Position numbers and translations under genes: made by a program
From: Dehalococcoidia bacterium
GTDB lineage: Bacteria; Chloroflexota; Dehalococcoidia; DSTF01; JACRBR01
Direction of reading: 5' to 3'
NCBI GenBank assembly: GCA_038240335.1
Contig: JBBSDV010000001.1
Span: 1-46,416 of the forward strand
Length of the DNA stretch: 46,416 nucleotides
Shown: positions 738 to 40,274 of the stretch, in pieces
How positions within the stretch are numbered: the first letter of the stretch is position 1
Layout of the letters: each line of letters begins with the position of its first letter
The notes under the pieces: generated by a model
What the model was told of the DNA's origin: nothing
Database searches by the model: none
Seen by the model: the letters and a program-made list of their open reading frames with translations, nothing else

Positions 738-1055
738 TCTTGTCTCCGTTGGCGTTCGTCGTTTGTCGTTCTTGAGCGTTGGTGCTGGTCGCGGGTTCGC
801 TGGGTGGGGTAGCGAATCACAGCGGTAAAAGAGAAAGAAGAAAGAAAGTTGCCGGCGGACGTCCCCGTACCCCCGGCAGCCGTCGTGGCGGCTGCACTCC
901 GTATCGGATCCAGAACTTCGCAACGGATTCGGCGCGGCGGCGGCTGGTGCGCGACTGCATTCAGTTTTCGGATCGCCGGAAACGCACCTCTCACCTCCCA
1001 CCTCTCGAATCGACTTGCAGGCGCCCCCACCTCTCATCTCTCACTTCTCACTGCC
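738..1055. repeat. Intergenic heptanucleotide-period tracts (738-814 G/T-rich on +; 984-1011 and 1028-1055 units CACCTCT CATCTCT CACTTCT CACTGCC)
   Basis: Read directly. Consecutive 7-nt units share a register. No credible ORF covers them. Confidence 0.6.
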
Positions 1056-1061
1056 CCGCGG

Positions 1062-1703
1062 TCAGTACTTGACGCGGTTCTGTTCGAAGATGCTGGGGGC
1101 ATCGGTGGTGTAGAGGCGGCGCTGGCGGACGGTTTGGGCGCGGCCGATGCGCGTGGTCTCGCGGCGGAAGTCGCGCAGGCGCTCTTCTCCGAACGATTTG
1201 TAGCGGCCCCAGACGTCGTCGCCGCCCGTATTGATGCGGTTGGTCGCGAACGACGTCCAGTCGAGCGCGGCATAGCCCGCGGCGCCGAGCGCGACGAGAT
1301 CCTCGTGGGGGACGGGCAGCGTGGATGTGGCGCCGTCGACGGTGTGGAGCTTCGTCCAGAAGACGTTGACGTTTTCGATGCCGTTCGGCGGCGCTGTCGC
1401 ATCGAGGGTGATCGTGGTCTGCCACGAACTGAAGCCGACGAGGCGCGGCGGAAACTCGCCTACCGGCCACTCGACGGCTTCGACGGCGACGAGGCTGGTG
1501 AGGGAGGCGACGCTAATGTCGCGGCTGCCCGCGGCCGTCGTCAGGGTGGATTTCTGTTCGAGCGGGGCGCGGAGGCTGTACTCGGCGACGGCGCGGCCGA
1601 TGTGCCGATCGAGGACAGCGTCGGTCCAACGGTAGGCGCTGCTGTCCTCGTCATGTAGATCCTGGCGGACGCGGGCGCGGATGGTGGTGATGGTTGTCGG
1701 CAT
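1062..1703 (-). CDS. Hypothetical protein (213 aa)
   Basis: This is the inner part of ORF 1062..1919. ATG at 1703 is preceded by AAGGAGA 9 nt upstream. The protein starts MPTTITTIRARVRQDLHDEDSSAYRWTDAVLDRHIGRAVAEY and has balanced composition. The 72 residues upstream in the track ORF are translated heptamer tract (TSHISLRASISRRTPTSHLQ). Confidence 0.6.
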   Translation of the reverse strand: MPTTITTIRARVRQDLHDEDSSAYRWTDAVLDRHIGRAVAEYSLRAPLEQKSTLTTAAGSRDISVASLTSLVAVEAVEWPVGEFPPRLVGFSSWQTTITLDATAPPNGIENVNVFWTKLHTVDGATSTLPVPHEDLVALGAAGYAALDWTSFATNRINTGGDDVWGRYKSFGEERLRDFRRETTRIGRAQTVRQRRLYTTDAPSIFEQNRVKY

Positions 1704-1726
1704 GGGTGTTGGTCTCCTTAGTTGGG

Positions 1727-1966
1727 GCGGTTGGAGGTGAGAGGTGGGAGTGCGGCGCGAGATGGAAGCGCGAAGCGAGATGTGAGAAGTGGGAAAACGG
1801 CGAACGGGACGCGGAGGCGATACGCGCGTTGTGTGTCGGAGTCGTTTTGACGGCGACTTATGCGCGTAGGATCGCAGCAGCTCGTTTCCTCTCGTTTGCG
1901 CCTCATCTCGATCTCTCACTTCTCACCTCTCGCCTCTCACTCACCCCTCGCCTGCCACTTCGCCGG
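1727..1966. repeat. Two opposed heptamer tracts (1727-1830 GGAGGTG AGAGGTG ... GTGAGAA GTGGGAA on +; 1883-1966 ATCTCTC ACTTCTC ACCTCTC GCCTCTC on +)
   Basis: Read directly. The two halves are mutually complementary in kind: gtgagaagtg near 1782-1791 versus cacttctcac near 1916-1925. Confidence 0.6.
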
Positions 1967-2641
1967 GCGGGCGGCGGGATCGGCGCGGGAAATGGGGGAT
2001 GCGCGATCGCCGGGGAGGGTGCCGGCGGCGGGGCGAGCGATCGGTACGGGCTCGGCGGCGATGTAGGTGACGCGGAGGCGCGGGGCGACGGTGAGCGCGG
2101 GGTCGGCGCGGAACGACGCCCACTTTGTGCCGGCGCTGGTGCTTTCGTCGTTGGCGCGCAGGCGCAGCAGCAGCTTGCCGCCGCGGTTTGTGATCGCATC
2201 GATGACGAAGGTGAGCAGGCCGCCGATCGTGATGTCGCCGAGAGCGCTCGGTGATGTGAAGCCGACTGCGGCGGGCGGCGTCGCGATATCGCCGCCGGCG
2301 GTCGTCCATGCGGATGCTGTCTTGTAGTTGTTCCAGTCGCCGCTGGCCGCGTCCCAGTCGGCTCGCGTGAGCCGCTCGATTGACGCCGGCCAGGCGCTGG
2401 GGCCGAGGATGGCGCCGCAATTGAGAATGAGGTCCGCGGCAGTGATCGCGTCCGTGAGGGCGAGCGGGCGGCCGGCGGCGGCCGCGCCGAAGACGTCGAA
2501 CGCGCCAATGCAGCGGTCGAGATTGACCTTGCTGCTGCCGGCAACGATGGTGCCGAGACTCCACATGTTCGTATTGACCGCGCCCGGGTGGAAGAGGTCG
2601 ATGTACTCGGTCGAAGTGACCACGAATGTCGATTGCGGCAT
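1937..2641 (-). CDS. Hypothetical protein (234 aa), possibly a beta-sandwich/carbohydrate-binding-like module
   Basis: ORF track; ATG at 2641 with GGGAGAAG 8 nt upstream. Composition is globular-like (MPQSTFVVTSTEYIDLFHPGAVNTNMWSLGTIV...). The segment GGKLLLRLRANDES only faintly recalls the DNRLRE/CBM96 motif, so no family is assigned. Confidence 0.55.
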   Translation of the reverse strand: MPQSTFVVTSTEYIDLFHPGAVNTNMWSLGTIVAGSSKVNLDRCIGAFDVFGAAAAGRPLALTDAITAADLILNCGAILGPSAWPASIERLTRADWDAASGDWNNYKTASAWTTAGGDIATPPAAVGFTSPSALGDITIGGLLTFVIDAITNRGGKLLLRLRANDESTSAGTKWASFRADPALTVAPRLRVTYIAAEPVPIARPAAGTLPGDRASPISRADPAARPAKWQARGE

Positions 2642-2674
2642 GTGACGACTTCTCCCGGGGTGTGTTGTGTGTGA

Positions 2675-3097
2675 TTACGGCATGTCGGGGGTGTTGCCAT
2701 CGGCATCGCTGACGCGGAGCGCGACGCTGCGGATGTCATGCAGTTCGCCGCTGAGGACGCCGGTCAGATCGCCGCGTCTGCGCTGCGGCGCGACGCCGCT
2801 GATCTGCTCGGCGAATCGCTGGAGGCGCGGCGGGACGTCGGTGTGCACGGTCGTGATTCCCGCCTCGGCGGCAAAACGCAGGGCCTCGCGCACGAGGAGG
2901 GTGAGGGCGCGGAGCCGCTGCCGGGGCGCACCGTTGGCGTCGCCGATGATCATCTCGCCGAAGTAGCCGCAACCGGCGACGGCGTTGATCGGGCAGCGTA
3001 CGCTCGCGAGCGGCGTCGCGTCGCCGGCACGAACAGTGACGACGAAGGCGAACGGCCCGTCGTGTGCTGCGCTGGCGGTGAGGGGTTCGGACCACAT
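2675..3097 (-). CDS. Hypothetical protein (140 aa)
   Basis: ORF track. It lies 33 nt upstream of the next minus-strand gene and has non-artefactual composition. No SD is seen upstream of ATG 3097. Confidence 0.45.
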   Translation of the reverse strand: MWSEPLTASAAHDGPFAFVVTVRAGDATPLASVRCPINAVAGCGYFGEMIIGDANGAPRQRLRALTLLVREALRFAAEAGITTVHTDVPPRLQRFAEQISGVAPQRRRGDLTGVLSGELHDIRSVALRVSDADGNTPDMP

Positions 3098-3340
3098 TGT
3101 TAGTTTGTCGTTCGTAGTTCGTAGTTTGTGGTTTCTAGTCGAATCTGCTGGGGCGTGGTGCTATGGTCGCTGCCCTGCTGTGGAACTCAAAGATGTGGCG
3201 TCACTTCGCGCGGAGCTGAGGCACGTCGTTTGTGGTTCGTGGTCGCAGTTCGGGTGCGACGGGGCGTGGTGCTCTGGTGCTGCGGTCGAGTGGGTGGGGA
3301 AGCGGTTCGGGTGCGGCGAGGTTGAGCCGAGATGGGGAGT
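3098..3340. repeat. About 240-bp field of heptamer-period sequence (TGTTAGT TTGTCGT TCGTAGT TCGTAGT TTGTGGT TTCTAGT at 3098-3139, then degenerate G/T-rich units)
   Basis: Read directly. The + ORFs listed here (3128..3325, 3232..3471) are Gly/Trp/Arg/Val-rich artefacts. Confidence 0.6.
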
Positions 3341-3357
3341 GGAGGCTCGCGGCCGCG

Positions 3358-3392
3358 ACGTCAGTCCTCTCGTCGGTAGAGAGGACTGACGT
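3358..3392 (-). terminator. Perfect 14-bp stem hairpin downstream of the VOC gene
   Basis: acgtcagtcctctc (3358-3371), 7-nt loop gtcggta, gagaggactgacgt (3379-3392). It starts about 57 nt past the stop at 3449. No clear U-tract. Confidence 0.45.
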
Positions 3393-3448
3393 GCGGCGTC
3401 ATCGATCGCGGGGAACCGGCGGAGTTGCGCGCTTCGGGACGGCAGAGC

Positions 3449-3808
3449 CTATGCGGGGTGGTACTCGATGAGCTGCATGTAGTTGCCGTCGGGATCGGTG
3501 AACGTGGAGATGACGCCGCCCCAGTCTTGCTTACCCTCTTTGCGGATGAACTTCACGCCTGCTGCTTCGAGGCGGGTCTGCTCCGACTTGATGTCGTCGA
3601 CCATGAGGCTGAGGAGGACGCGTGCCGGTTCCTTCGTCGGGCCCGTAACCTCGCTGTGACTGTCGATCATGAACGGCGTCGAGCCCGCCATCATGGCGAA
3701 TTCGCCCATATCCGGGTTGGGCGGCAGGCCAACGGTATCGCGGTAGAAGGCGCCGAGGCGCTGCGGATCCGGGCTCGTCACGTTGATGATGATTTGGTTG
3801 ACGTTCAT
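3449..3808 (-). CDS. VOC (glyoxalase/bleomycin-resistance/dioxygenase) family protein
   Basis: 119 aa. The pattern MNVNQIIINVTSPDPQRLGAFYRDTVGL...FTDPDGNYMQLIEY is typical of single-domain VOC proteins. Confidence 0.8.
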   Translation of the reverse strand: MNVNQIIINVTSPDPQRLGAFYRDTVGLPPNPDMGEFAMMAGSTPFMIDSHSEVTGPTKEPARVLLSLMVDDIKSEQTRLEAAGVKFIRKEGKQDWGGVISTFTDPDGNYMQLIEYHPA

Positions 3809-4020
3809 GGTTTGCTCCTTCGTGTACGTGTGCCGTTTCTTCTTGCTTCATCGTACGGGACTGCTGGTGACAGCGTTCTGTCAGGAGGAATTGCGAAGTT
3901 TTGCGGCAGATGTCTCTGAGGACGGAGTGATGACATGAGATCCGGGGCTGGAACGCGCGCGCGATGGAGCCTCGTTACGAGGCGGGCTTGTGCTGGGGAC
4001 GGTGGAGTGGAGGCGTACGA

Positions 4021-4137
4021 AGAAGATCGTTCGCTGGCGCTCTGGATGACGGGTTTTCGTGCTGGGACGGGCGGTCGGCCTGAACGATGGGCGATTTCCG
4101 TAGGACGAAGAAGGTCCTTCGCTTCGCTCTGGATGAC
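4021..4137 (-). repeat. Two tandem copies of the dispersed GTCATCCAGAGCG..GCGAAG.ATCTT element
   Basis: Minus-strand reads are GTCATCCAGAGCGCCAGCGAACGATCTTCT (4050-4021) and GTCATCCAGAGCGAAGCGAAGGACCTTCTT (4137-4108). Their flanks are also similar (gggttttcgtgctgggacgg / aggctttttcgccgggacgg). The track ORF 3881..4300 translates them as HPERSEGP / HPERQRT. Confidence 0.7.
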
Positions 4138-4214
4138 AGGCTTTTTCGCCGGGACGGCGCATCTGCCTGCAATGGCGCGCTTTGTGAGCGGCGTCGGCCG
4201 GCAACTGGTAGCCG

Positions 4215-5174
4215 ATGGCGGGCGTACAATGCGGTATGGGGCGTCGGATCTGGATTTTCACACAGCAGACGTATTTTGGGTTTACGCGCGACAACTGCAC
4301 CCAACTCGCGGCGGCGATCTCCTACTACGTGCTCTTCTCGATCCTTCCGCTGGCGATCCTGGTGGTGTCGATCTTCGGCATCTTCCTCAATAGCGGCGAT
4401 CTGCGGAACGCGATCGTCGACCGCGTGCTGGACGCACTGCCGCTGACGCAGACCGAAGGCCGGACGTCGGTCAACAACGCGCTGGACAACGTCAACCGCG
4501 TGAGCGGAACGGTCGCGGCGCTGGGACTTCTCGGCACGCTGTGGACGGCGTCGGCGGTGTTCGCTTCGATCCGAAAATCGCTGAACGCAGTGTGGAAGGT
4601 GCAGGAACACCGGCCGTTCGCGCAGGCGAAGCTCGTCGACATCATGCAGGTGGGTGTGCTGGGGGCGATGCTGCTGGCCTCGATGCTGCTGACGGGCGTG
4701 CTGCGGGCGATCCGGTCGCTCAGCGCGCAACACGTCGGGCCGCTGGCCGGCAGCAACCCGTTCTGGGCGGTGCCGCCCATCGTCCTCCCGGCGGTGCTGT
4801 CGCTGACGACATTCCTCCTGCTGTACCGCATCGTGCCGGCGGCGCGGCCGGGCTGGCGCGACGTGGTTCCGGGGGCCGTGGTGGCGACGCTGTTGTTCGA
4901 GGCACTGAAGAACTCGTTCGCGATCTACATCGCGAACTTCAACAACTTCGACGTCGTCTACGGGTCGCTGGCCGGCGCTCTGCTGTTCCTTTTCTATACG
5001 TTCCTTTCGTCGAACATCCTGCTGATCGGCGCCGAGCTTTCGCGGACGTTCCAGCGCTATCACATGGGAGAGCTCGATGCCGAGCTGTACCCGCCCTACC
5101 CGGGGCCGACGGTTGCGACGCGCGCCTTCCGCGCCGTCAAGGGGTTGTTTGTGCGCAGCAGCGAGGAGACATGA
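4215..5174 (+). CDS. YihY/BrkB (ribonuclease BN-like) family membrane protein
   Basis: 319 aa. The segment FTRDNCTQLAAAISYYVLFSILPLAILVV, multiple TM segments and the C-terminal NILLIGAELS are typical of the family. The start (4215 or 4236) is uncertain. Confidence 0.8.
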   Translation: MAGVQCGMGRRIWIFTQQTYFGFTRDNCTQLAAAISYYVLFSILPLAILVVSIFGIFLNSGDLRNAIVDRVLDALPLTQTEGRTSVNNALDNVNRVSGTVAALGLLGTLWTASAVFASIRKSLNAVWKVQEHRPFAQAKLVDIMQVGVLGAMLLASMLLTGVLRAIRSLSAQHVGPLAGSNPFWAVPPIVLPAVLSLTTFLLLYRIVPAARPGWRDVVPGAVVATLLFEALKNSFAIYIANFNNFDVVYGSLAGALLFLFYTFLSSNILLIGAELSRTFQRYHMGELDAELYPPYPGPTVATRAFRAVKGLFVRSSEET

Positions 5175-5244
5175 GGTGAGATTGGTGACTGGTGACTGGT
5201 GACTGGTGGGTGATGATTGGTCGTCGGTCGTCGGTTATTGATTA
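5175..5244. repeat. Ten consecutive heptamers immediately after the yihY-like stop
   Basis: GGTGAGA TTGGTGA CTGGTGA CTGGTGA CTGGTGG GTGATGA TTGGTCG TCGGTCG TCGGTTA TTGATTA. Confidence 0.8.
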
Positions 5245-5277
5245 ACGGGCGCGGCAGGCAGCGCACGGGAGGTGGAG

Positions 5278-6009
5278 ATGCGTCTCGACGGGAAGGTCGT
5301 GCTGATCGCCGGGGCGGGCGGGCGGCAGGGGACGGCGGTGCCGATCGTGTTTGCGCGCGAGGGAGCGACGTGCGTGCTCGCCGGTCTCGCCGGCGACGAA
5401 CTGGATCGGCTGGCCGCTCACATTGTCGCCGGCGGCGGCAACGCAATCGCGCGGGCGACGAACCTCGTCGATGCGAGCGAGGCGGAGGCTGCGGTGCAGC
5501 TGACCATCGAGCGGTATGGGCGAATCGACGTGCTCTACAACAACACCGGGATCTACGCCGGCGGCGATGTGCGGACGGCCGATACTCCGCTCGACCAGTG
5601 GCAGCAGGTAATCGACGCGGATCTGCGGTCGCACTTCCTGACCGCGCGGTTCGCGCTGCCGGCGATGCAGCGCCAGGGTGCGGGGGCGATCATCAACATC
5701 GCGGCGGCGCGGCCGGCGAGGCTCGGCGGAAACGTCGCGTACGCGGCGGCAAAGAGCGCGATCATCGGCATGACGCAGAAGATGGCGCGCGAGTACGCCG
5801 CAGACAACATTCGCATCAACTGCATCTGCCCGACGAACATCCAGTCTTCGCCGGACGCGCTGGCGGCGCCGCTGCCAGCGCGAATGCTGGCTCGCGATGG
5901 CACGCCGGAGGACGTCGCCTATGCGGCGCTGTTTCTCGCGTCGGACGAAGCTTCATGGATCACCGGCGCGGCGCTCGTCGTCGACGGCGGGGCGGAGGCA
6001 GCGGGCTAG
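5278..6009 (+). CDS. SDR family oxidoreductase
   Basis: Motifs GAGGRQG (nucleotide-binding), NNTG and YAAAK (catalytic YxxxK). ATG 5278 is preferred over the track start 5272 (GTG) because GGGAGG lies about 7 nt upstream. Confidence 0.85.
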   Translation: MRLDGKVVLIAGAGGRQGTAVPIVFAREGATCVLAGLAGDELDRLAAHIVAGGGNAIARATNLVDASEAEAAVQLTIERYGRIDVLYNNTGIYAGGDVRTADTPLDQWQQVIDADLRSHFLTARFALPAMQRQGAGAIINIAAARPARLGGNVAYAAAKSAIIGMTQKMAREYAADNIRINCICPTNIQSSPDALAAPLPARMLARDGTPEDVAYAALFLASDEASWITGAALVVDGGAEAAG

Positions 6010-6115
6010 TCGCCGATTGTTGTGGAGGCGGTGAGGGTTGGGACGTTTGATCAAGCATCGATCCGTCGACGTTCGTTCCGCGACCAGACCAGCGACCAGC
6101 AACACAACCAGGCGA

Positions 6116-6646
6116 CTAACGAGCGGCCCAGCCGTCCTTGACCCACTTCCAGTGCATGCGGCCGTGATCGGCGTTGACCGCGAGAATGGCGCCGACGGTG
6201 CCGTCGGCCCAGGGCGCGCCGGGCACCTTCTCGAGTAGCTGTTCGTCACTGAGGCTTGCGAGCAGTGCGAGGGTCTCGGCGCGGGCGGCCTGGCCAAGGG
6301 CGACGACGTCGCTCAGCGACTTCGAGCGTTGCTCGCGAACCCACTGTTCGGTCATCTCATGAACGGTGGCCATCACTTGCTCGCGTGTCCGCGGCTGGCC
6401 CTCTGCGTCCCGCGCGAAACCGACGGCGTTGCGGTCGCCGGCGAGGTGACGCTTGATCATGCGGACGAAGTTCCTCTCGATACCGGCGAGGTGGGCGAGG
6501 TGATCCATCGCGCTCCACGATGACTCCGGATCGTGCTCGCTCGGCGTGGCGGCGCGGAGGAGGTCGGCCTCCGGGAGCTGGGCGTAGGTGTCGAGGAGCC
6601 ACGCGCGATCGGTGTTGAGCTTAATCTCGATCTCGGTGCGGTTCAT
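6116..6646 (-). CDS. DinB-family (four-helix-bundle, metal-dependent) protein
   Basis: 176 aa. WSAMDHLAHLAGIE ... VNADHGRMHWKW gives the His pattern typical of DinB/ClbS-like bundles. Confidence 0.65.
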   Translation of the reverse strand: MNRTEIEIKLNTDRAWLLDTYAQLPEADLLRAATPSEHDPESSWSAMDHLAHLAGIERNFVRMIKRHLAGDRNAVGFARDAEGQPRTREQVMATVHEMTEQWVREQRSKSLSDVVALGQAARAETLALLASLSDEQLLEKVPGAPWADGTVGAILAVNADHGRMHWKWVKDGWAAR

Positions 6647-6660
6647 GCGCTGTGGTCCGA

Positions 6661-6709
6661 CTGGTGACTGGTGACTGGTGACTGGTGACTGGTGACTGGT
6701 GACTGGTGA
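6661..6709. repeat. Perfect (CTGGTGA)x7 tandem array
   Basis: Seven identical contiguous copies, beginning 14 nt upstream of the minus-strand start codon at 6646. Confidence 0.95.
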
Positions 6710-6791
6710 AGCGTATATCGCGGTAACGGCTCAGGCTACCGTTGACCAGTGACGAGCGAGCAACACCGAACCGGCCGACGACCAGCGACCG

Positions 6792-7208
6792 CTAGTCCTC
6801 GGCGGCATGGCGGATGGCCATGGCGGGAGCGGGCTGGCCGAAGCGCGTCCAGAGCTTGAGGGCGCTCCGAAGCTGCTCCATGCGCTCCTCGTCGCAGTCG
6901 AAGCCCTCGAGCAGGCAGCGGTCGAGGTGGTACTCCATGAGACGCGCGCCGACCTGGTCGACGGCGCTGCGGATGGCCATCGACTGGGTCAGCATGTCCT
7001 CGCAGTCGCGACCCTCCTCGAGCATCTTGACGATGCCGCGCGCCTGGCCTTCGATCCGGCGTAGGCGGGCGGCAATGTCGGCGGCAAGCGGCTTGGTCGT
7101 GACATTCGGCGACGCGGGGCTTTCAACGAGGGCATCGTCGCCGCCGGCTCGGGTCGGAACCCGTGTCGTACTTGCGGTCTTGATTGGTTGTTCCGAGTTG
7201 GTGGCCAT
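6792..7208 (-). CDS. csoR: CsoR/RcnR-family metal-sensing transcriptional repressor (CsoR-type C-H-C ligand set)
   Basis: In ...RIEGQARGIVKMLEEGRDCEDMLTQSMAIRSAVDQVGARLMEYHLDRC..., Cys-x24-His-x3-Cys matches the Cu(I) CsoR spacing. The start is taken at ATG 7208 (GGAG 9 nt upstream) rather than the track start 7256. Confidence 0.8.
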   Translation of the reverse strand: MATNSEQPIKTASTTRVPTRAGGDDALVESPASPNVTTKPLAADIAARLRRIEGQARGIVKMLEEGRDCEDMLTQSMAIRSAVDQVGARLMEYHLDRCLLEGFDCDEERMEQLRSALKLWTRFGQPAPAMAIRHAAED

Positions 7209-7254
7209 GATGCTGCTCCGATGGCACTGTACATTTTCTTGCGGAGGGCTTGAC

Positions 7255-7271
7255 ATACCCTATGGGGGTAT
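7255..7271. promoter_or_regulatory. CsoR-type operator ATACCC-N5-GGGTAT
   Basis: ATACCCTATGGGGGTAT is an AT-flanked C-tract/G-tract inverted repeat of the type bound by CsoR proteins. It lies between csoR (minus) and trxA (plus). Confidence 0.65.
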
Positions 7272-7298
7272 AGTACTCTGAGTGCAGACAGAAGTCAA
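7270..7298 (-). promoter_or_regulatory. Sigma-70-like promoter for csoR (TTGACT-17-TACTAT)
   Basis: On the minus strand, TTGACT is at 7298-7293, followed by a 17-nt spacer and TACTAT at 7275-7270. The -10 overlaps the operator by 2 nt (7270-7271); the rest of the operator lies just downstream. Confidence 0.55.
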
Positions 7299-7349
7299 TC
7301 CGCCGCCTGCAGGGGCATCGCGACGGGCAAGCAGAAGGAGACGATGACG

Positions 7350-7673
7350 ATGGCCAAGCCGAGTGAAGTAACAGACGCGAATTTCGATGCCGAGGTGATC
7401 AACTCTGACACGCCGGTTCTGGTGGACTTTTGGGCGCCGTGGTGCGGTCCTTGCCGCATGGTCGCGCCGATTGTCGACGAGCTGTCGACCGAGTACGACG
7501 GCAAGGTGAAGTTCGTCAAGCTCAACACGGACGACAACGTGAAGACGGCCTCGACCTACGGCATCCGCAGCATTCCGACGCTGCTGGTGTTCAAGGGCGG
7601 CGAGCCTGTGGGCTCGATCATCGGTTTCCGGCCGAAGAGCGACCTCAAGAAGAAGCTCGACGCGGCGCTGTAG
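7350..7673 (+). CDS. trxA: Thioredoxin
   Basis: WCGPC active site and about 107 aa. AAGGAG at 7335-7340 favours ATG 7350 over the track start 7344. Confidence 0.95.
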
Positions 7674-7775
7674 GCTGCCGCGCAACCTTCGGCGGCAGAC
7701 GAGCTGCGAACCGAATCGAAGACGACAGAGAGCGGCATGATGCCGCTCTCTGTGCGTGTGCAGGAAAGACAGCGC

Positions 7776-8744
7776 ATGACGACGAGCACGACCGACTACG
7801 ACATCATCATCATCGGCGCCGGGCCAGCCGGACTCTCGGCCGGCATGTACGCGGCGCGAGCACGGCGGCGGACGCTGATGATCGAACGCAAGATCACAGG
7901 CGGCCAGATCGCGCTGACCGCCGGCGTCGAGAACTATCCCGGCATCGACCTGATCAACGGCTTCGACCTGGCACAGGCGATGCACGAGCAGGCGACGAAG
8001 TACGGGATGGAGACGACGCCCGGCGATGCGACCGGCATCGAGCAGTTGGCGGACGGCCGCCACCGCGTGCGGACGGACGAGGGCGACTACACCGGGCGCG
8101 CCGTCATCCTCACCGGCGGCGCCGACTACAACCGGCTCGGCGTGCCGGGCGAGGATCGGCTGACCGGCTTCGGCGTCTCGTACTGCGCGACGTGCGACGC
8201 GGCGTTCTTCAAGGACCACGATGTCGCCGTCGTCGGCGGCGGCGATGCGGCGCTCGATGAGGGTCTCTTCGTGACGCGCTACGTCCGGCACGTCAGCCTG
8301 ATCCATCGTCGCGACGCGCTACGGGCCAGCGCGATTCTGCAGGAGCGCGCGTTTGCGGAGCCGAAGATCGAGTTCGTCTGGAACACGGTCGTCGAGGAGA
8401 TCCTCGGCGATGACGCGGTGACGGGGGTGCGTATCCGCAACGTCGAGAGCGGCGAGACGTCGGTGCTGCCGGTGACGGCCGTCTTCATCTTCATCGGCCT
8501 GACGCCGAACACCGACTATCTGCGCGGGCTGGTGAAGACTGATGCCGACGGCCATATCTATGTGAACGAATGGATGGAGACGGAGGTGCCCGGCCTCTTC
8601 GCTGCGGGCGACATTCGCGCGAACTCGGCGCGGCAGGTCGTCAGCGCCGCCGGCGACGGCGCGACCGCGGCGATCCGCGCGGACCACTACATCAGCGACA
8701 GCTTCGCCGCCGCTGTTGGAAGCGGGAAGCGCGCGATCGGTTGA
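7776..8744 (+). CDS. trxB: Thioredoxin-disulfide reductase
   Basis: GAGPAG FAD motif, CATC redox-active disulfide, and a second dinucleotide fold VVGGGDAA. The start is taken at ATG 7776 (MTTSTTDYDIIIIGAG) after AGGAAAG. Confidence 0.9.
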   Translation: MTTSTTDYDIIIIGAGPAGLSAGMYAARARRRTLMIERKITGGQIALTAGVENYPGIDLINGFDLAQAMHEQATKYGMETTPGDATGIEQLADGRHRVRTDEGDYTGRAVILTGGADYNRLGVPGEDRLTGFGVSYCATCDAAFFKDHDVAVVGGGDAALDEGLFVTRYVRHVSLIHRRDALRASAILQERAFAEPKIEFVWNTVVEEILGDDAVTGVRIRNVESGETSVLPVTAVFIFIGLTPNTDYLRGLVKTDADGHIYVNEWMETEVPGLFAAGDIRANSARQVVSAAGDGATAAIRADHYISDSFAAAVGSGKRAIG

Positions 8745-8860
8745 GGTCGTACGGATCCCGGGGCCAAGTTCGGAACCTTGTCGTTGATCCGGAGCGTGAT
8801 GAACCCGTTGGCGCACGGAAACCAAAGAAGCGCTAGAAGCACTGCAACGGAGGTAACGTT

Positions 8861-8882
8861 GGCTGGATCTCGAGATCCAGCC
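8861..8882. terminator. Perfect 22-bp palindrome between convergent trxB and thiolase genes
   Basis: GGCTGGATCTCGAGATCCAGCC, a candidate bidirectional terminator hairpin with no U-tract. Confidence 0.45.
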
Positions 8883-8911
8883 TCCAACCTCCACTGACCA
8901 AACAGCCAGCC

Positions 8912-10219
8912 CTAGATCGCCTCGATGATCGTCGATATGCCCATGCCGACGCCGATGCACTGCGTCGCCAGGCCGTAGCGCTTGCCCGACCTCCGCAGTT
9001 CGTGCGCGACTGTCGAGACGAGCCGCGCGCCCGTCGCACCGAGCGGATGGCCGATCGCGATCGAGCCGCCGTTGACGTTCACCTTGTCCATCGAGATGCC
9101 CAGCTCGCGGCACGACGGGATCACCTGCGCCGCAAACGCCTCGTTGAACTCGACGCGGTCGATCTGATCTGCCGAGATGCCCGCGTGGCGCAGCGCCTTG
9201 TTCGTCGCCGGGATCGGCCCCAGGCCCATCACCTGCGGCTTCACACCGCCCACGCCCATGCCGATAATGCGCGCCAGCGGCGTCAGGCCGAGCTCGCGCG
9301 CCTTGTCCTCCGACATCAGCAGCGCCGCTGAGATGCCGTCGTTCGTCGGGCAGGAGTTGCCGGCCGTGATCCGCAGGTCCGTGTCGCCGAAGCTCTTGAT
9401 GCCGCCGACCGGCTTCAGTGCGCCGAGCCCCTCGACGTTCGTGCCGCGGCGCAGGCATTCGTCCTGCTCAAACGTGATCTGCTTGCCGTGCTCGTCCGCC
9501 AGCCAATTGCCCTGGTCGTCGAACACGGGCAGCTCGACATCGAGCGGAATGATTTCGTCCTTGTAGATGCCCTTGTCGTAGGCCGCCGCCACGCGCCGGT
9601 GGCTCTCCGCCGAGTACTCGTCCATCTCCTCGCGCGACAGGTTGTACACCTCCGCGACGTTCTGCGCTGTCTGCGTCATCGACGTGATCGCGGGCGCATC
9701 GAGAATGTAATCCGGGAACGGCACCGAGAAGTTCTTGTCGTGATCCGGCGTCATGTTGCGCTGCATCTCGTTCATCTGCGGCAGCTTCTTGTTGAACTCC
9801 GTGACGCGCGTCTTCGGTGCGCCGTTACCGCCGCCCGCGAGCGATCGGCCCATGCGCTCGATGCCGAGCGCGATGCCGCACTCCGTCGCGCCCACCATGA
9901 TCGACTGCGCCACCCGGTGCAGCGTCTCCATGCTCGAGCCGCACTGGCGGTTCGAGTCGAAGGAGCACGCCTCGGCAGGCAGCCCGGCGAGATGGGCGAC
10001 GTTATTCGCGCCGATCAGGATCAGCTCGCCCGCGCCCATCACATTGCCCAGGCCGATGTCCTCGACCATCCACGGACTGACCTTCGGATTGCGCTCCATC
10101 AGCGCGCGCAGCACCCTGGCGCCCGCATCGTCGAGCCGCGTCGCTACGAGACTGCCGCGCCCGCCGCGCCCGAATGCCGATCGCACACCATCGACCAGCA
10201 CCACGTTCTTGAGTTCCAT
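8912..10219 (-). CDS. Thiolase-family acetyl-CoA C-acyltransferase
   Basis: NRQCGSS (nucleophilic Cys), GHPLGATGARL, CIGVGMG. The start is taken at ATG 10219 (MELKNVVLVDGVRSAFG) with GGAGG upstream. Confidence 0.9.
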   Translation of the reverse strand: MELKNVVLVDGVRSAFGRGGRGSLVATRLDDAGARVLRALMERNPKVSPWMVEDIGLGNVMGAGELILIGANNVAHLAGLPAEACSFDSNRQCGSSMETLHRVAQSIMVGATECGIALGIERMGRSLAGGGNGAPKTRVTEFNKKLPQMNEMQRNMTPDHDKNFSVPFPDYILDAPAITSMTQTAQNVAEVYNLSREEMDEYSAESHRRVAAAYDKGIYKDEIIPLDVELPVFDDQGNWLADEHGKQITFEQDECLRRGTNVEGLGALKPVGGIKSFGDTDLRITAGNSCPTNDGISAALLMSEDKARELGLTPLARIIGMGVGGVKPQVMGLGPIPATNKALRHAGISADQIDRVEFNEAFAAQVIPSCRELGISMDKVNVNGGSIAIGHPLGATGARLVSTVAHELRRSGKRYGLATQCIGVGMGISTIIEAI

Positions 10220-10552
10220 CGAAATACCTCCGCTATACGTCATAAGGGCGCCAAGCCGACGCCAGACGCGAATTCCAGTCTAATCTGCGGCTTCTCTGGA
10301 AGCTAGCGGCATCAGCTTCTTGTTTGAAACTCGTCGTTGACGGCGTTAGGCCGGTGATTACGCGCGCAAAGCACGTGCGTCGAGGGAAGAACGGAGGACC
10401 GAACCCGGATAGCGGCGCATCTCCGAGAGGCCTCGGATGGCGAGCAGTGGGGACGCGTGCGAAGGCGCTAAAGACGTCGCGCAAATGGACTGGCGGCGCG
10501 TTGCGCCGTTCGTCATTCTTCAAGACGCCACCCGCGACCAGCAGGGATCGCA

Positions 10553-29663: not shown

Positions 29664-29861
29664 TCATTCAGAGCGCCAGCGAAGAATCTTGTTCGGCTTG
29701 TCGCCGAACGCCGATTCGGCAATGAAAGCAGCGGCATCAGAAATGCCTGTGCGAAACGAAAGCGAGAAGCGAAGCCGGCCAGCGCCCTCGCGCGGATCAT
29801 CATCCTCAGCCGCATCCTCGCCGTGCATGATTGGCATTCAGAGCGCCAGCGAAGAATCTTG
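29664..29861 (+). repeat. Two direct copies (170 bp apart) of CATTCAGAGCGCCAGCGAAGAATCTTG
   Basis: Copies at 29664-29691 and 29834-29861 share an identical 27-nt core. Related GTCATTAGG / GTCATTCAGG half-sites occur at 29618-29650. Confidence 0.75.
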
Positions 29862-30084
29862 CCCGGCTGTCGCAGAAGCTCCGATATCGCCAGACGTCAC
29901 CGCCACGCCAAGACACGCGGCCGAAACAACCGAAAATTGAACAACCGAGTACATAACCGATGACGCTAGTACCGGCTGCATCACGACCACGTTCGCTTAC
30001 CGCGGCAACCCCAGACCATCACCGCACAGCCCGATGACCCCAAAAGTGCCAAACGATTACATAACGAATCAGCGAGGCCGACCC

Positions 30085-31385: not shown

Positions 31386-31505
31386 GTCATCCTGAGCGTC
31401 AGCGAAGGATCTTGTTGGGCCTGACCGTATCCTCGTTCGAACAGGCGAGGCCCGAACGCGAGATCGCCAGCGTTCCGCACAAGACCTTCGCGGGCTCAGG
31501 GTGAC
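31386..31505. repeat. Inverted pair of the dispersed element (about 120-bp hairpin-forming unit)
   Basis: Left arm GTCATCCTGAGCGTCAGCGAAGGATCTTG (31386-31414). The right arm on the minus strand is GTCACCCTGAGCCCGCGAAGGTCTTG (31505-31480). Confidence 0.7.
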
Positions 31506-33784: not shown

Positions 33785-33920
33785 CGCTCAGTGTAGGGCG
33801 AGCAACGACGGGCGGACTCGAGAATGCCGCTGTCTGCACTCCGCTCGCCGTTCGGAGCGCGCTTTAAGGGAGGAGCGCAACCGACAAGCAAGGAAGGGCG
33901 TCGCGTTTGCGACGCCCTTT

Positions 33921-33955
33921 CAATCACCAGTCACCAATCACGAGTCACCAGCAAC
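33921..33955. repeat. Five heptamers CAATCAC CAGTCAC CAATCAC GAGTCAC CAGCAAC abutting the permease stop codon
   Basis: Read directly. On the permease sense strand it reads GTGACTG/GTGATTG, the same family as CTGGTGA. Confidence 0.9.
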
Positions 33956-36900
33956 CTACTCGTACCGCAGCGCCTCCGCGACGGGGACGTTCGCCGCACC
34001 GCGACTGGGCCACCACGTCATCGCCAGCGAGAAGACGAAGGCGATGGCGGCGAAGCCGACGACCTGCAACCACGGGATCGTGAAGTCCGAACCGATGTCG
34101 GCGAACTGGCCCGAGGTCATCAAGTTGCGGGCAAGAATCGTGCCGCCGACGACGCCGGAGAGGATGCCCATTAGCGCGATGAAGCTCGACTCCAGCATGA
34201 AGGTCAGTGCGACGCTGCCGCTCTGGTAGCCGATCGCCCGCAGCATGCCGATCTGCTGGCGCCGCTCGACCACCGAGCGGAAGGCGATGACGCCGAGCGA
34301 GATGATGCCGACGAACAGGCCGAGCGCCATGAACGCCTGGAACATTTGGTTGAAGGCTTTACCCTGCGCAACGCTCTGGTCGATCAGCGCCTTGATTGAG
34401 TCGGCCTGCACCCGCTTCGTCGTCAGCGCCGACTCGATCTGGTTCGCCGCAGTCTTCGCATTGACACCGTCCTTCAGCCGCACATACGTCCGCTGATAGT
34501 CCGGCGCGCCGAAGACGGGCGCATAGGAGGCGGCATTGACGTAGATTCCGCCCGTGATGCTCGAATCGAGCTTCATCGCGAGGACGCCGATGATCGTCAC
34601 GCGCTTGAGGTCGCCTGTCACCGGGTTACGGAACTCGACGTCGACCGGTTCGAAGCGCTTGTCGTTGACATTGAGGCTGGGCTGGAAGTCGTACGAGCTG
34701 AACTCCGAACCGTCGGCGAGCGCGACATCGCTATTCGTACGGATCGCGTTGAACACGTCGGCGTCGCTGTTGTAGCCGTGTGCCCGCGCATCGAGCGAGG
34801 AGTGCCCATTCGAATAGAAGGCATCATCGCCGGCGATCACCGGGTAGGACGCCCAGCGGCCTTCGTCATAGCCGGGCTGATGCACCTGCTGCTCGCCGGT
34901 AAACACCGTCGTCCGGCCTTCGCTGTCGATCTCGCTTGCGACGGGTGCGTTCGCGTCGACCAGCGCCTGCTTGACGTCGCCGACGGGGTTGTTGCGGTTG
35001 GCCGTCGCGAGAACGTTCCAGCCGCCGTCGCCGCTCTTGCCGGCGGTCTTCGCCGCAAAGTTGGCGTTGATGATGCTGAACACGGTCAGCGAGAAGATGA
35101 TCAGCGCGAACATCGCGATCGTCATTCCGGTGCGGAAGCGGTTCGAGAGCGGGTAGGCGACGCCCATCTTCAGTGCCGGGCCCAGCTTCGGGAACTCTGC
35201 CGCCGAATACGAGGCCGCCGTCACCATCGCCGCGAGCGCTGCGAAGAGGTACATCAGCTGGCCGAGGCCGTCGCCCTTCTTGCCGATCAGCACGCCGCCG
35301 GCGACGAACGCCAGAGTTGCGGCGGAGGCGGCGACCGACACGCGGTAACGCCCGGTGCGGAACAGGGCCGTCAGCAAGCGTGCGTTGAACACGATGACCA
35401 GCGTGAAGCCGATGACGACCATGATGCCGGACATCAGGAACATCTCGATATCGCCCTCGAGCGTCGTTCCGAGGATCTTGCCGCCGATGTCAAACGGCGT
35501 GAGCCAGTAGGCCAGCAGCCAGGCGCCGACGATCGTCCACGTCAGGCGGCTCGGCGCGCGGTAGTACGATGCGATCTGCGCCACGCACAGCGGGATGAGC
35601 GAGAACCCGAACCCCGCGAGGAACTGCGACGCCGTGCCGCCGCCCCGGGCTCCCTGCAGCGCCAGCAGCGAGAGCGCGATGCCGATCGGCGCGATGATCC
35701 ATGCCCACGCCAGGCCGATGCCTTTACGGAAGAAGAGCCAGATGCCGAACGGCGGCACGATCATTGCGGGCAGGCCAATGGCGACCCACTTCCAGTTCGT
35801 GTTGCGCTTCGGCTGGCGGCGATCGTCGTCGTCGGTGCCGCGGATGGCGCCGACGATGTTGACGTTCGACACCTTCATCGCCGAGATGACGACAGTTACG
35901 AACGTCACGACGACACCGAGGCAGTAGCTGACGATCAGCGACCGCGCCGTCACGTGCGCCGTGATGAACGACCCGCCGCCCCCAAGACCAACCTGCAGAA
36001 TGCCGAGCACCAGCGCGATCGCAGCCGCCACGCCGAGTGCGCCGCCGACGATGCCGGCGAGCACGCTGTACGCCATGCCCTCCGCCATGAACGACTGCAC
36101 GAGGCTGTTTTTCTGCGCGCCGACCGCACGCGCCATCCCCATCTCGGGCTTCCGCTCGGCCGCGAGCATGACGAAGATCATGAAGATCAGCATCACGCCG
36201 GACGCGATCGAGAAGAGGCCGAGCACGAGGAACAGTGTCGTGAGGACGTTGCCGAACTTCTCGGCATCCTCCACCGCGTCCTTCTTGAACGTCTCGACCT
36301 TAACGTTGCGGACGCCGACGCCAAGGGTCGACTTGCCCTCGTCGCTCGAAACGAATGACTGCAGCCGCGCCGCCGGGGCCGCCGCCTTCGATACGGTGCT
36401 GCGCACGTCGCCCTTGAGCGCGACGCTGATCTGATTCACCTGGCCGGCGTGGCCGGTGAGCGCCTGCACCGTCGTGAGGCGCATCGCGGCGCCCCCTGGG
36501 GTGCGCGCATCGGCCGCATTCGTCGAGCCGGCAGCGCGCTCGTCCTTGACGACGCCCGCGACGTGCGCGTCGTGCGCCTGGCCGCCTACCGAACAAGCTC
36601 ACCGTGTCGCCGAGCTTGGCGTCGAGCGCGTCGGCCGCTTGCTTGCTGAGCAGGATGTCGTTTTCGCCTAGCGTCTTCAGGGTGAAGCGCCCGCCGCTTT
36701 CGAGCCGCAGGCCGCCGAGGCGATCGAGCCGCTCCGGGTCGATGCCGCTCAGCTGCACCGTCGGCTCCGAGAGCCCGCTGCGCTGATCCTGCACGGCGAC
36801 GCCCTCGAACAGGAACGGCATGAAGCCATCGATGCCGGCGTCGTTCGCGAAGCGCCGCTCCAGCACGGGCACCGCTCCCTCGGCGAAGTAGACTTCGTTG

Positions 36901-38067: not shown

Positions 38068-38302
38068 CGCAATGCTCCTTACCGCCGTCTCCGGCGCTCC
38101 CGTCTCGATATAGCGATTGTCTCGCGACTGAGGGCGCGCGTAATCGACCTTGCGTCGGGGCTGGGGCTGGTGCTTCTGCCTCAGCCCGCCTCCGCCGAAC
38201 GGCGGAGCATTGCCGGGCGATGACGTCGTGACGGAAGTGATCATTGAGGCGACGGCTGCGCTAAACTGGCACTACCAACTCGCACACTCCCGGAGCAGAC
38301 GC

Positions 38303-39196
38303 ATGGAACTCGGCCGCCTCCTCACCGCCATGATCACGCCGTTCACGCGCGATGGCGCCGTCGACTACGCGCAGGCGCGTCGCCTGGCGCTGGCGCTGCT
38401 CGATTGCGGATCAGGCGGCATCGTCGTCACCGGCACGACGGGCGAGGCGCCGACGCTGACCATTCCTGAGAAGATCCGGCTCTGGCAGGAAGTAAAAGAG
38501 GCGGTCGGCGACCGCGCGGCCGTGATCGCCGGTTCCGGCGACAACTGCACGGCCGACAGCGTCGACCTCAGCCGAGAGGCAGTGCGCACCGGCGTCGACG
38601 CGCTGCTGCTCACGGTGCCCTACTACAACAAGCCGACACAGGAGGGCATGTTCCGGCACTTCGCTGCGATCGCCGACGCCGTCGAACTGCCGTGCATCCC
38701 GTATAACGTCCCGAGCCGCACAGGCGTCAACATGAACGCGGATACGCAGCTGCGGCTCGCGCGACACGGCAACATCGCCGGCGTCAAGGAAGCGAGCGGC
38801 GACATGGCGCAGATCGCGCTGATCATCGAGGATGCGCCGCCGCAGTTCCGAGTTTGGTCGGGCAACGACGAGGACACGTTCGCCGTCGTCTCGCTCGGCG
38901 GCTACGGCGTGATCAGCGTGACGAGCCACATCGTCGGCCGCCAGATCGCCGCGATGATTGCCCATCTCCTCGCTGGCCGGATCGGCGAAGCCGCCAAGCT
39001 GCACAGGCGGTTGCTGCCGCTGAACGACGCGCTCTTCTGCGTCACGAACCCGATCCCGCTCAAGTACGCTCTCAACCAGCTAGGCTTCGAGGCCGGACCA
39101 TTCCGGCTGCCGCTGTGCGAGCCGGACGAGGCATCGGCGCACCGCATCATCGCCGAGCTGCATCGCCATACCATCGACCTCCCGCTGCCGGTCTAG
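38303..39196 (+). CDS. dapA: 4-hydroxy-tetrahydrodipicolinate synthase
   Basis: TGTTGE, YNVPSRTG, GVKEASGD (Schiff-base Lys). The start is taken at ATG 38303 (MELGRLLTAMITPF), with GGAG 8 nt upstream. Confidence 0.9.
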   Translation: MELGRLLTAMITPFTRDGAVDYAQARRLALALLDCGSGGIVVTGTTGEAPTLTIPEKIRLWQEVKEAVGDRAAVIAGSGDNCTADSVDLSREAVRTGVDALLLTVPYYNKPTQEGMFRHFAAIADAVELPCIPYNVPSRTGVNMNADTQLRLARHGNIAGVKEASGDMAQIALIIEDAPPQFRVWSGNDEDTFAVVSLGGYGVISVTSHIVGRQIAAMIAHLLAGRIGEAAKLHRRLLPLNDALFCVTNPIPLKYALNQLGFEAGPFRLPLCEPDEASAHRIIAELHRHTIDLPLPV

Positions 39197-39197
39197 C

Positions 39198-40226
39198 ATG
39201 GCCGAAACGCAATCAGCTCATCGGCTGATCCTCGGCATCGAGACATCGTGCGACGAGACCGCTGCCGCGGTCGTCGAGGATGGACGGACGCTGCGCTCGA
39301 ACGTCATCGCATCGCAGTTCCACCTGCACGCACAGTACGGCGGCGTCGTGCCGGAGGTAGCATCGCGGCACCATCTCGAAGTGATCCTGCAGGTCGTCGA
39401 TGCGGCGCTGGCGGAGGCGCAGGTAACGTGGCGCGACCTCACCGCCGTCGCCGTTACCGCCGGGCCGGGGTTGGCGGGCGCCCTGCTGGTCGGCGTCAAC
39501 ACAGCGAAGGCGCTGGCTTACGCGCACGACCTGCCACTGCTTGGCGTCAACCATCTCGAGGCGCACCTGTACGCGAATTGGCTCCAGGTCGACGGCCGTG
39601 ACTACGTCGTGCCCGAGCTGCCCGCGCTCGGCCTCATCGTCAGCGGCGGCCACACGGATATCGTCCTGATGTCGGATCACGGGGTCTATCGGCGCCTCGG
39701 GCGCACGCGCGACGACGCCGCAGGGGAAGCTTTCGATAAGGTCGGCCGGCTGCTCGGTCTCGGGTTCCCCGGCGGGCCAGCGATCGAGCGCACTGCGCGC
39801 GAGTCCGGAACGCCGCGGCTGCGCCTGCCGCGAGCGTGGCTGAAGGGGACCGACGACTTCTCGTTCAGCGACCTCAAGACAGCGGTCCTGCACGTCGTAC
39901 GAAACGAGGATGCGCCTGCGCCGCCGGTACCCGAGATCGCCTCGGCGTTCCAGACGGCCGTGATCGACGTACTGACGAGGAAGGCGGTGAGGGCGGCCGA
40001 GCGCGAAGGGGTGCGCAGCATGCTGCTTTCGGGCGGGGTCGCCGCTAACCGGGCGCTACGCGACCTGCTCGTACAACGGTCCCCGGTGCCGGTCTTTACG
40101 CCGCCACCCGTCCTCTGCACCGACAACGGCGCGATGATCGCCGCCTGCGCCCACTACCGGTACGACGCGCTCGTGGCCGGCTGGGACCTCGACCCGCAAC
40201 CCGGCATGAAGGTCGTTGGCAGCTGA
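39198..40226 (+). CDS. tsaD: tRNA N6-adenosine threonylcarbamoyltransferase
   Basis: LGIETSCDETAAAV, NHLEAHL, and the typical Kae1/TsaD length. It starts 1 nt after the dapA stop. Confidence 0.9.
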   Translation: MAETQSAHRLILGIETSCDETAAAVVEDGRTLRSNVIASQFHLHAQYGGVVPEVASRHHLEVILQVVDAALAEAQVTWRDLTAVAVTAGPGLAGALLVGVNTAKALAYAHDLPLLGVNHLEAHLYANWLQVDGRDYVVPELPALGLIVSGGHTDIVLMSDHGVYRRLGRTRDDAAGEAFDKVGRLLGLGFPGGPAIERTARESGTPRLRLPRAWLKGTDDFSFSDLKTAVLHVVRNEDAPAPPVPEIASAFQTAVIDVLTRKAVRAAEREGVRSMLLSGGVAANRALRDLLVQRSPVPVFTPPPVLCTDNGAMIAACAHYRYDALVAGWDLDPQPGMKVVGS

Positions 40227-40274
40227 ATCTGGTCGCATGGTCGCTGGTTCAACCAGGAACTACAAACGACAAAC

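Follow-up and report, generated by a model that had tools for sequence, protein, structure and literature searches.

Intergenic heptanucleotide repeat arrays in an uncultured Dehalococcoidia lineage: density, turnover, and orientation at gene borders

Genes and period-7 tracts of the window

We analyzed a 46,416-nt stretch of DNA from a Dehalococcoidia bacterium (contig JBBSDV010000001.1; G+C 66%), referred to as the window, with a focus on the tandem arrays of 7-nt units that lie in its intergenic spacers. These tracts are a dense new example of an already described class of heptamer repeats and no new phenomenon. Gene models of the window were based on third-position G+C and checked with Pfam. 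They comprise genes for a BrkB-like protein, a short-chain dehydrogenase, DinB-family proteins, a thiolase, an alanine racemase, DapA, TsaD, and an FtsX permease, as well as for a large beta-helix/TSP3/dockerin protein. The spacers hold no known RNA family, as the window gave neither Rfam hits nor tRNA genes in a tRNA scan (0 each).

A lag scan (28-nt windows, self-match ≥ 75% at the given lag) revealed 10 segments at lag 7, amounting to 471 nt, 465 nt of which are non-coding, and no segments at lags 4, 5, 8, 10, 11, and 13. Period 7 was the sole period other than multiples of three that stood out in the window, and it was restricted to non-coding DNA. The non-coding self-match reached 0.314 at lag 7 and 0.299 at lag 14 over a background of ~0.27, and removal of the 10 strongest tracts left a lag-7 value of 0.294. 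Coding DNA had a lag-7 self-match of 0.260, which equals its background (~0.26), i.e., there was no period-7 excess. We further counted tract-bearing spacers of at least 40 nt at a slightly laxer threshold than in the lag scan, with dinucleotide-preserving shuffles as the null. Tracts were present in 13 of 29 spacers (16 segments, 687 nt, 8% of the spacer DNA), compared to 0.19 ± 0.44 in the shuffles and to 0–2 spacers at other lags. A preliminary description of this DNA, made from the sequence alone, had stated that period-7 tracts fill almost every spacer and had suggested a comparison with shuffled spacers. The excess over the shuffles is there and the tracts are real, but "almost every" was an overstatement.

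Tract positions were obtained with Tandem Repeats Finder (TRF), which reported 18 period-7 arrays in the window. Two of them (starting at 21740 and 36919) are not among the tracts described before; the others start at 749, 985, 1028, 1913, 3101, 5183, 5219, 6659, 12182, 17388, 19044, 27028, 27048, 28355, 33924, and 40229. The longest perfect array has the unit GACTGGT in 7.3 copies (6659–6709). Further examples are ACTACCA (3.9 copies, 19044–19070), CGTCCCG (7.9 copies, 17388–17442), and GGCGGCT (3.7 copies, 27048–27073). The sequences agree with the preliminary description. Individual tracts were compared to 2000 shuffles by their lag-7 match (m7). All seven tracts that had been listed as the clearest were recovered by TRF and exceeded every shuffle (p < 0.0005), which also applies to 984–1055, 1727–1830, 18650–18700, 28325–28395, and 40229–40274 from the list of weaker tracts. 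Four others in that list had p-values of 0.003–0.009 (6745–6791, 12140–12202, 13945–13988, and 24677–24711), and four were marginal with p-values of 0.03–0.07 (738–814, 6010–6115, 8883–8911, and 1883–1966). Most of the weak list thus exceeded the shuffles; 38264–38291 had no period-7 signal (p = 0.47). Likewise, the supposed decay of the tract at 3098–3139 out to about 3340 finds no counterpart in the data, as the region 3140–3340 lacks a period-7 signal (m7 0.29, p = 0.69). The tracts and their neighboring genes are as follows (sense refers to the strand of the named gene):

738–814: weak tract with TTGTCGT x3 at 749–770, adjoining the start of gene 3–737 (−); the + strand is G/T-rich, hence the 5' leader of this gene is A/C-rich (m7 0.44, p = 0.026)
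983–1058: two CACCTCT/CTCTCAC arrays immediately past the stop of gene 1062–1703 (−); sense AGAGGTG (p < 0.0005)
1722–1830: GGAGGTGAGAGGTGGGAG-type tract in the leader of gene 1062–1703 (−) (m7 0.56, p < 0.0005); inverted partner of the array 974–1009 in the repeat scan
1909–1943: CTCTCAC x4–5 at the stop of gene 1937–2641 (−) (TRF)
3096–3141: TAGTTYG/TCGTAGT x6 abutting the ATG of gene 2675–3097 (−), whose leader consists of ACTACGA/ACAAACT and lacks a Shine-Dalgarno motif (TRF, shuffles)
5172–5247 (+): ten units (TTGGTGA, CTGGTGA x3, CTGGTGG ... TCGGTCG) from the stop of the BrkB-like gene 4236–5174 (+)
6661–6709: perfect (CTGGTGA)x7 ahead of the DinB-like gene 6116–6646 (−), at a distance of 15 nt from its ATG; the leader RNA, (UCACCAG)7, is unstructured (−2.4 kcal/mol)
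6745–6791: degenerate tract immediately past the stop of gene 6792–7208 (−); sense strand G/T-rich, GCGGTCG CTGGTCG TCGGCCG ... (p = 0.006)
12140–12204: CGCGCAT-type array at the stop of the MFS transporter gene 12203–13690 (−)
13945–13988 (+): weak, A/C-rich period-7 tract in the leader immediately before the methyltransferase gene 13989–14759 (+) (p = 0.009)
17388–17443: eight CGTCCCG/CTTCCCG units between divergent genes; C-rich on the sense strand of gene 17512–18639 (+)
18647–18700 (+): CTGGTCG-type array, 7 nt past the stop of gene 17512–18639 (+)
19037–19079: (ACTACCA)x4 in the 3' flank of the large beta-helix/TSP3 gene 19135–23781 (−), 55 nt beyond its stop; sense TGGTAGT
24674–24711 (+): AATCACC/AGTCACA leader tract, 24 nt upstream of gene 24728–25576 (+), followed by a GGAGG motif
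27024–27114: TTGGTTG x3, GGCGGCT x4, and degenerate units; 17 nt separate the tract from the ATG of the downstream alanine racemase gene 25814–27007 (−), which has an A/C-rich leader
28325–28395: array of the CTGCAAA/CCGCAAA type that follows the stop of the LysR gene 28405–29325 (−) at a distance of 11 nt
33919–33956: CAATCAC CAGTCAC CAATCAC GAGTCAC CAGCAAC, abutting the stop of the FtsX permease gene 33956–36484 (−); sense YTGGTGA; a canonical G+C-rich hairpin (33886–33918) comes next
40229–40274: short CTGGTCG-type run, then an A/C-rich run, occupying the 48-nt spacer between the convergent stops of TsaD (39198–40226, +) and gene 40275–41366 (−) (p < 0.0005)

As described before, the tracts adjoin the borders of coding sequences, with 10 of the 16 non-coding tracts of the window beginning or finishing within 24 nt of a start or stop codon. 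At least 10 distinct units occur, and YTGGTSR, which had been called the dominant unit, is the commonest family, yet does not make up the majority. All arrays lie outside every open reading frame (ORF) supported by third-position G+C, and (CTGGTGA)n contains TGA in each + strand frame; a coding reading was therefore rejected. The tracts have the period in common and not the sequence, and the repeat scan found matches between tracts only among arrays of the same unit. Dispersed elements of the repetitive extragenic palindromic (REP) or miniature inverted-repeat (MITE) type, i.e., one conserved palindrome or element in many copies, were likewise rejected, as the arrays do not have this form.

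Regarding other repeats, the window contains five copies of a dispersed ~34-nt repeat, CATTCAGAGCG[C/G]CAGCGAAGAATCTTG, at 27159–27192, 29665–29698, 29835–29868, and 31388–31421 (+) and at 4018–4049 (inverted). Every copy lies in a long spacer without a supported gene; the repeat lacks period-7 structure and resembles a small element of the REP/MITE type. Two − strand ORFs (19135–23874 and 44224–46266) contain long in-frame coding repeats, at 19806–19946 and 45144–46090, whose periods are 12, 39, and 132 nt. The unit of these repeats on the coding strand is GGCGACGAACACGCCGAC, which would give Asp/His/Gly-rich stretches. The ORF 19135–23874 corresponds to the large beta-helix/TSP3/dockerin protein. 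The coding repeats of both ORFs are unrelated to the period-7 tracts.

Period-7 tracts in relatives and in known heptamer systems

TsaD homologues with 80–93% identity to that of the window were metagenomic, and the few with a source name came from metagenome-assembled genomes (MAGs) of Dehalococcoidia or Chloroflexota. Period-7 tracts were about as dense in six contigs of close relatives (0.31 per kb) as in the window (0.30 per kb), compared to 0.04 per kb in 781 kb from distant bacteria. The distant set comprises 79 loci around TsaD genes (TsaD 43–65% identical, among the matches listed), and contig L122 was the only close relative among the matches listed in the scan of metagenome contigs for TsaD. 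Lags other than 7 gave essentially no tracts in the window and the close relatives. The groundwater contig L203 carries 17 tracts in 20 kb, with the units (GGTTCTA)x10, TAGTTCG, CAGCAAA, CCAGTCA, and CTGGTCG next to genes such as groES/groEL, TsaD, and DapA. Contig L202 has only one tract, i.e., the density varies among relatives. Period-7 tract density thus appears to be a lineage-wide trait with variation among its members, and the earlier characterization as a non-coding, genome-style signal agrees with its absence from coding DNA and with the same density at unrelated loci in relatives.

While the density is shared, the units in relatives are others than those of the window. Between the window and L121, whose TsaD is 93% identical, the spacers beside the same genes are unalignable and carry different arrays or none. 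However, TsaD is followed by a G/T-rich array in the window, L203, and L206, in each case with a different unit. Arrays turn over fast yet keep arising in the same kind of place. Their complete difference between relatives and their location near promoters and starts, the classic anatomy of phase variation as outlined in PMC4679880, would fit contingency loci, at which changes in copy number switch the neighboring genes. We nevertheless regard such a role as highly improbable. The neighbors have housekeeping or metabolic functions (TsaD, alanine racemase, and thiolase; groES/groEL in L203) and are not surface, virulence, or restriction–modification genes. Furthermore, many arrays are located 3' of genes, most are imperfect, and no length difference separates L203 from its near-identical counterpart L204.

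Heptamer arrays also had consequences for gene calling in L203, in the regions 8576–9247, 9252–9399, and 11791–11918. Three called ORFs of 60–79 aa traverse heptamer arrays, the first ~120 nt of the called TsaD gene cross an array, and another array is located near the 5' end of a DUF2851 gene. The repeats have probably given rise to spurious ORFs here and to starts placed too far upstream. Automated gene calling across heptamer tracts yields spurious ORFs and N-termini that are too long.

Outside this lineage, we looked for (YTGGTSR)x4 in 185,579 species genomes and obtained at least 120 loci. The 120 matches listed are distributed among Cyanobacteria (36), Bacteroidota (21), Planctomycetota (17), Proteobacteria (12), Acidobacteriota (10), Chloroflexota (4), Gemmatimonadota (3), and others (17). 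The Chloroflexota among them are Ardenticatenaceae, a Dehalococcoidia MAG (67% G+C), Chloroflexia, and Anaerolineae. Many of these 8-kb loci contain extra period-7 tracts with other units, and lags 5, 8, 10, and 11 are almost nil.

The STRR sequences of heterocystous cyanobacteria have the units CCCCAGT (STRR1), TTGGTCA (STRR2), and CAACAGT (STRR3). The likeness to STRR that had been proposed for the tracts holds: both have period 7, an intergenic position, and several unit families, TTGGTCA matches YTGGTSR, and the 36 cyanobacterial loci named above form part of the matches listed for (YTGGTSR)x4. However, phylum and G+C content differ, the window units TTGGTGA, CTGGTGA, and CTGGTCG are one mismatch away at best, and the TRF output for the window contains no array of an exact STRR unit. 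Since STRR names cyanobacterial families only, and since host and units differ, we rejected an assignment of the tracts to STRR proper.

The closest match is given by the intergenic heptanucleotide simple sequence repeats (SSRs) that are widespread among prokaryotes (Mrazek et al., 2007; Mori et al., bioRxiv 10.1101/309039). They are of the same kind: 7-nt tandems that are strongly over-represented against other unit lengths, intergenic, present as many units per genome, and found in high-G+C hosts. The window tracts share the head-to-tail arrangement, the excess of 7-nt units, and the non-coding position. They differ in the host, i.e., uncultured Chloroflexota/Dehalococcoidia-like MAGs, and in the density of ~0.3 per kb. 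According to the accounts of Mrazek et al. (2007) in PMC4679880 and PMC4692102, heptanucleotides outnumber every other class in the majority of genomes with an abundance of repeats of 5–11-nt units, and the top ten include four Burkholderia, three Actinobacteria, and Xanthomonas campestris. A single unit dominates in the marine Beggiatoaceae, where TAACTGA repeats lie immediately upstream of starts and ribosome-binding sites are scarce (MacGregor, 2015; PMC4679880); this heptamer was reported from marine Beggiatoaceae, Cyanobacteria, and Bacteroidetes, with 169 sets and few related heptamers. The window resembles this case in having heptamers a few nt before starts and often no ribosome-binding site, but it contains many units, and half of its arrays follow stops. 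Within the same phylum, 22 satellites derived from one heptamer repeat, (GATAGRA)n, were described for Chloroflexus aurantiacus (Subirana and Messeguer, 2019; PMC6749651). Here, too, heptamer tandems are dispersed in the genome, but only one unit family was reported, and the genome has a G+C content of 56.7%. The earlier statement that nothing equivalent is known from a high-G+C genome is contradicted by Burkholderia, Actinobacteria, and Xanthomonas (PMC4679880, PMC4692102), next to the Chloroflexus case (PMC6749651). Regarding novelty, the repeat class as such is already catalogued, also for the phylum, whereas this uncultured lineage itself is not.

Orientation at gene borders and RNA folding

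We scored the orientation of tracts with the gene models of the window and the called genes of the relatives. The + strand was G/T-rich in tracts nearest to a left-hand gene (17:3) and A/C-rich in tracts nearest to a right-hand gene (15:2; Fisher p = 1e-5), and this bias was identical whether the gene border was a start or a stop. In terms of mRNA sense, tracts after stops were G/T-rich (20:2) and tracts before starts were A/C-rich (12:3; p = 2e-5). Whole spacers followed the same pattern, with a higher G+T content at the left end in 53 and at the right end in 23 (Wilcoxon p = 4e-5), and this was seen in all four gene arrangements. At the multi-phylum loci (120 among the matches listed), neighboring arrays of opposite composition were ordered G/T to A/C in a ratio of 53:10 (p = 3e-8); by crude gene calls, arrays before starts were A/C-rich (36:10) and arrays after stops were G/T-rich (57:32; p = 4e-6). 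A replication-strand cause was dropped, as G/T- and A/C-rich + strand arrays are interleaved on both sides of the GC-skew turn at ~9 kb. The cumulative GC skew of the window goes up to ~9 kb and down to ~34 kb, and its turn coincides with a switch in the predominant gene strand.

The same rule was published by Rehm et al. (2015; PMC4692102) for the heptamers GGGAATC in Xanthomonas (coding G+C ~65%) and GGGGAYT in Nostoc, ~90% of which are intergenic. Their G-rich strand is sense within 50 bp after stops and antisense within 50 bp before ORFs, and each genome has ~70 convergent inverted pairs. Length and sequence vary extensively between related species, and the G3–4 runs of these heptamers form G-quadruplexes in vitro. 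The tracts of the window and its relatives occupy the same positions, and they share the intergenic location, the frequent convergent inverted pairs, the extensive variation between related species and, with Xanthomonas, the high-G+C host. They differ in that most units, among them CTGGTGA, TAGTTCG, GCTGGCG, and ACTACCA, have no G3 runs and hence lack the feature that defines G-quadruplex formers. As the rule holds for units without G runs, orientation is independent of G-quadruplexes, which suggests that it depends on G/T versus A/C strand composition. The − strand of 17388–17443 is the only case in the window with GGG in every unit (CGGGACG/CGGGAAG x8) and could form a G-quadruplex. This strand is antisense and lies ~70 nt upstream of gene 17512–18639, which is the position reported by Rehm et al. 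(PMC4692102).

Folding predictions for the two strands as RNA revealed a clear asymmetry. The G/U-rich strand of 6650–6720 folds with −24.4 kcal/mol (z −3.75) and its A/C complement with −2.4 kcal/mol; the corresponding values are −30.2 (z −5.36) and −4.8 for 5172–5247, and −10.9 (z −3.65) and 0 for 33919–33956. Folding of the G/U-rich strand relies on G–U wobble pairs. Among 41 tracts, the more structured strand was the sense strand after stops (19:1) and the antisense strand before starts (13:1). The array 5188–5235 is the best terminator-like site in bases 1–20000, where a T-rich tail comes after a stem of 20 pairs, and other arrays after stops are located between the stop codon and a canonical G+C-rich hairpin (33919–33956; 16679–16716 in L203). 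We tried a preference for YTGGTSR as a wobble palindrome (ACUGGU), which was rejected because real units rank mid-table among units of the same composition, and a long hairpin between the spacer halves as a general rule, which was rejected with 12 of 53 cases at z < −2 (composition-preserving block shuffles). The folding asymmetry is real and follows from composition; selection for particular palindromic units is unsupported.

Near-perfect long intergenic hairpins do occur where a G/T-rich array closely precedes its own reverse complement, namely in L121 (4192–4268), L203 (16679–16802), L014 (4975–5071), and L048 (1493–1624), with spacer z-scores of −6.1 (L121) and −8.4 (L203).

Array-bearing leaders consist almost entirely of A and C, and a Shine-Dalgarno motif is missing from four of the seven. 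Since arrays abut starts and this scarcity recalls the BOGUAY genome (PMC4679880), they might be binding sites for a sequence-specific protein, which could be a DNA-binding regulator or nucleoid protein or an RNA-binding protein of the S1, cold-shock, or CsrA-like kind. Protein binding has been proposed for Beggiatoaceae TAACTGA and for heptamers upstream of recF/recO in Nostoc, where removal of the array upstream of recO altered reporter activity (preprint 10.1101/2022.06.06.494920). For the window, this seems unlikely to us, as one sequence-specific partner cannot read at least 10 unrelated units in 46 kb, and more in relatives, and as half of the arrays follow stops instead of preceding starts.

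Regarding other gene starts, a TAnnnT box resembling a −10 element (TACAAT, TATACT, TACACT, or TACGAT) was found to end 6–8 nt before the ATG, without a Shine-Dalgarno motif, at 4236, 32307 (−), 33784 (−), 41366 (−), and 43894 (−). Such boxes just before the ATG suggest leaderless mRNAs.

Origin of the arrays and implications

The explanation we consider probable is that the tracts are intergenic heptanucleotide SSR arrays that are born by slippage, kept outside reading frames, and filtered for orientation at the RNA level. Arrays would arise and lengthen by strand slippage and subsequently erode by point mutation; we infer this origin from perfect cores with degenerate flanks, from the many unrelated units, and from the full turnover between relatives. 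For the period itself, the only published proposal that we found is that of Mrazek et al. (2007; cited in PMC4679880 and PMC4692102), by which ~7 nt corresponds to the stretch interacting with the replicative DNA polymerase, favoring slippage. Since 7 is not a multiple of 3, each unit would shift a reading frame, and arrays would persist only outside of reading frames; the arrays are confined to spacers. The choice of the mRNA strand is non-random, with G/T-rich arrays after stops and A/C-rich arrays before starts. G/U-rich arrays can fold by G–U wobble, and their A/C-rich complement cannot pair with itself. Unstructured leaders favor initiation, and a filter at the RNA level might accordingly retain A/C-rich arrays as open, unstructured 5' leaders for ribosomes. 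At the other end of genes, G/U-rich arrays would provide foldable 3' ends, sometimes as the terminator stem themselves and sometimes ahead of a canonical hairpin. In this reading, the arrays would be part of the transcripts and may affect expression.

Several observations weigh against this explanation. The location of arrays in untranslated regions is deduced from their position only. L203 and L204, which are 99.75% identical over 13.8 kb, have 0 indels and 0 substitutions in 11 arrays (545 nt), and hypermutability is thus not demonstrated; L206 and L207 are 100% identical and hence uninformative on copy number. The comparison of orthologous spacers that had been proposed for detecting copy-number change therefore yielded one near-identical pair without change, next to the unalignable spacers of the window and L121. 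Real units are mid-table folders among units of the same composition (ranks 22/60, 27/30, 24/60, and 58/60), TAGTTCG arrays occur after stops without any folding, and specific pairing between G/T- and A/C-rich arrays within a spacer is limited to the 12 of 53 cases given above. The 120 multi-phylum loci were chosen for YTGGTSR arrays, and the gene calls there are crude. Finally, one rule at the DNA level, with the G/T strand running 5' to 3' from the gene border into the spacer, fits the data equally well.

Neutral slippage debris without any function is a possible, though doubtful, alternative. Position and orientation would then reflect mutational bias, such as polar growth or a transcription-linked asymmetry. 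Unit diversity within one genome, degenerate array edges, the lack of anything conserved in the same spacers of relatives, and the fact that real units fold no better than composition-matched ones are all in line with it, and the preference for period 7 in many unrelated phyla fits a property of the replication machinery. However, the orientation bias is pronounced (p ~1e-5) and takes opposite directions at starts and stops. Transcription-coupled mutation bias has one direction along the whole transcript, and because it is uniform, it does not predict this reversal. The recurrence of arrays with different units beside TsaD in the window, L203, and L206 also speaks against pure debris.

A single polar process at the DNA level, building arrays with the G/T strand 5' to 3' from the gene border toward the middle of the spacer, would require only one geometry at starts and stops alike, whichever way the flanking genes point, and is consistent with the 53:10 order from G/T to A/C across phyla; in spite of this, we hold it to be improbable. 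Such a process could consist in the addition of repeats to 3' ends where breaks or stalled forks occur in spacers, or in slippage that extends only one way from the borders of transcription units. If true, it would be common to Cyanobacteria, Planctomycetota, Bacteroidota, Acidobacteriota, and Chloroflexota, and it would also set the period of 7.

The lineage represents a dense natural test set, with arrays in nearly half of the spacers, many units, and almost none capable of forming G-quadruplexes. The main addition is that the published orientation rule extends to heptamers without G-quadruplex potential, to a Chloroflexota-like lineage, and to loci of many phyla. This narrows the explanations worth testing to two, i.e., a filter at the RNA level or a polar process at the DNA level.

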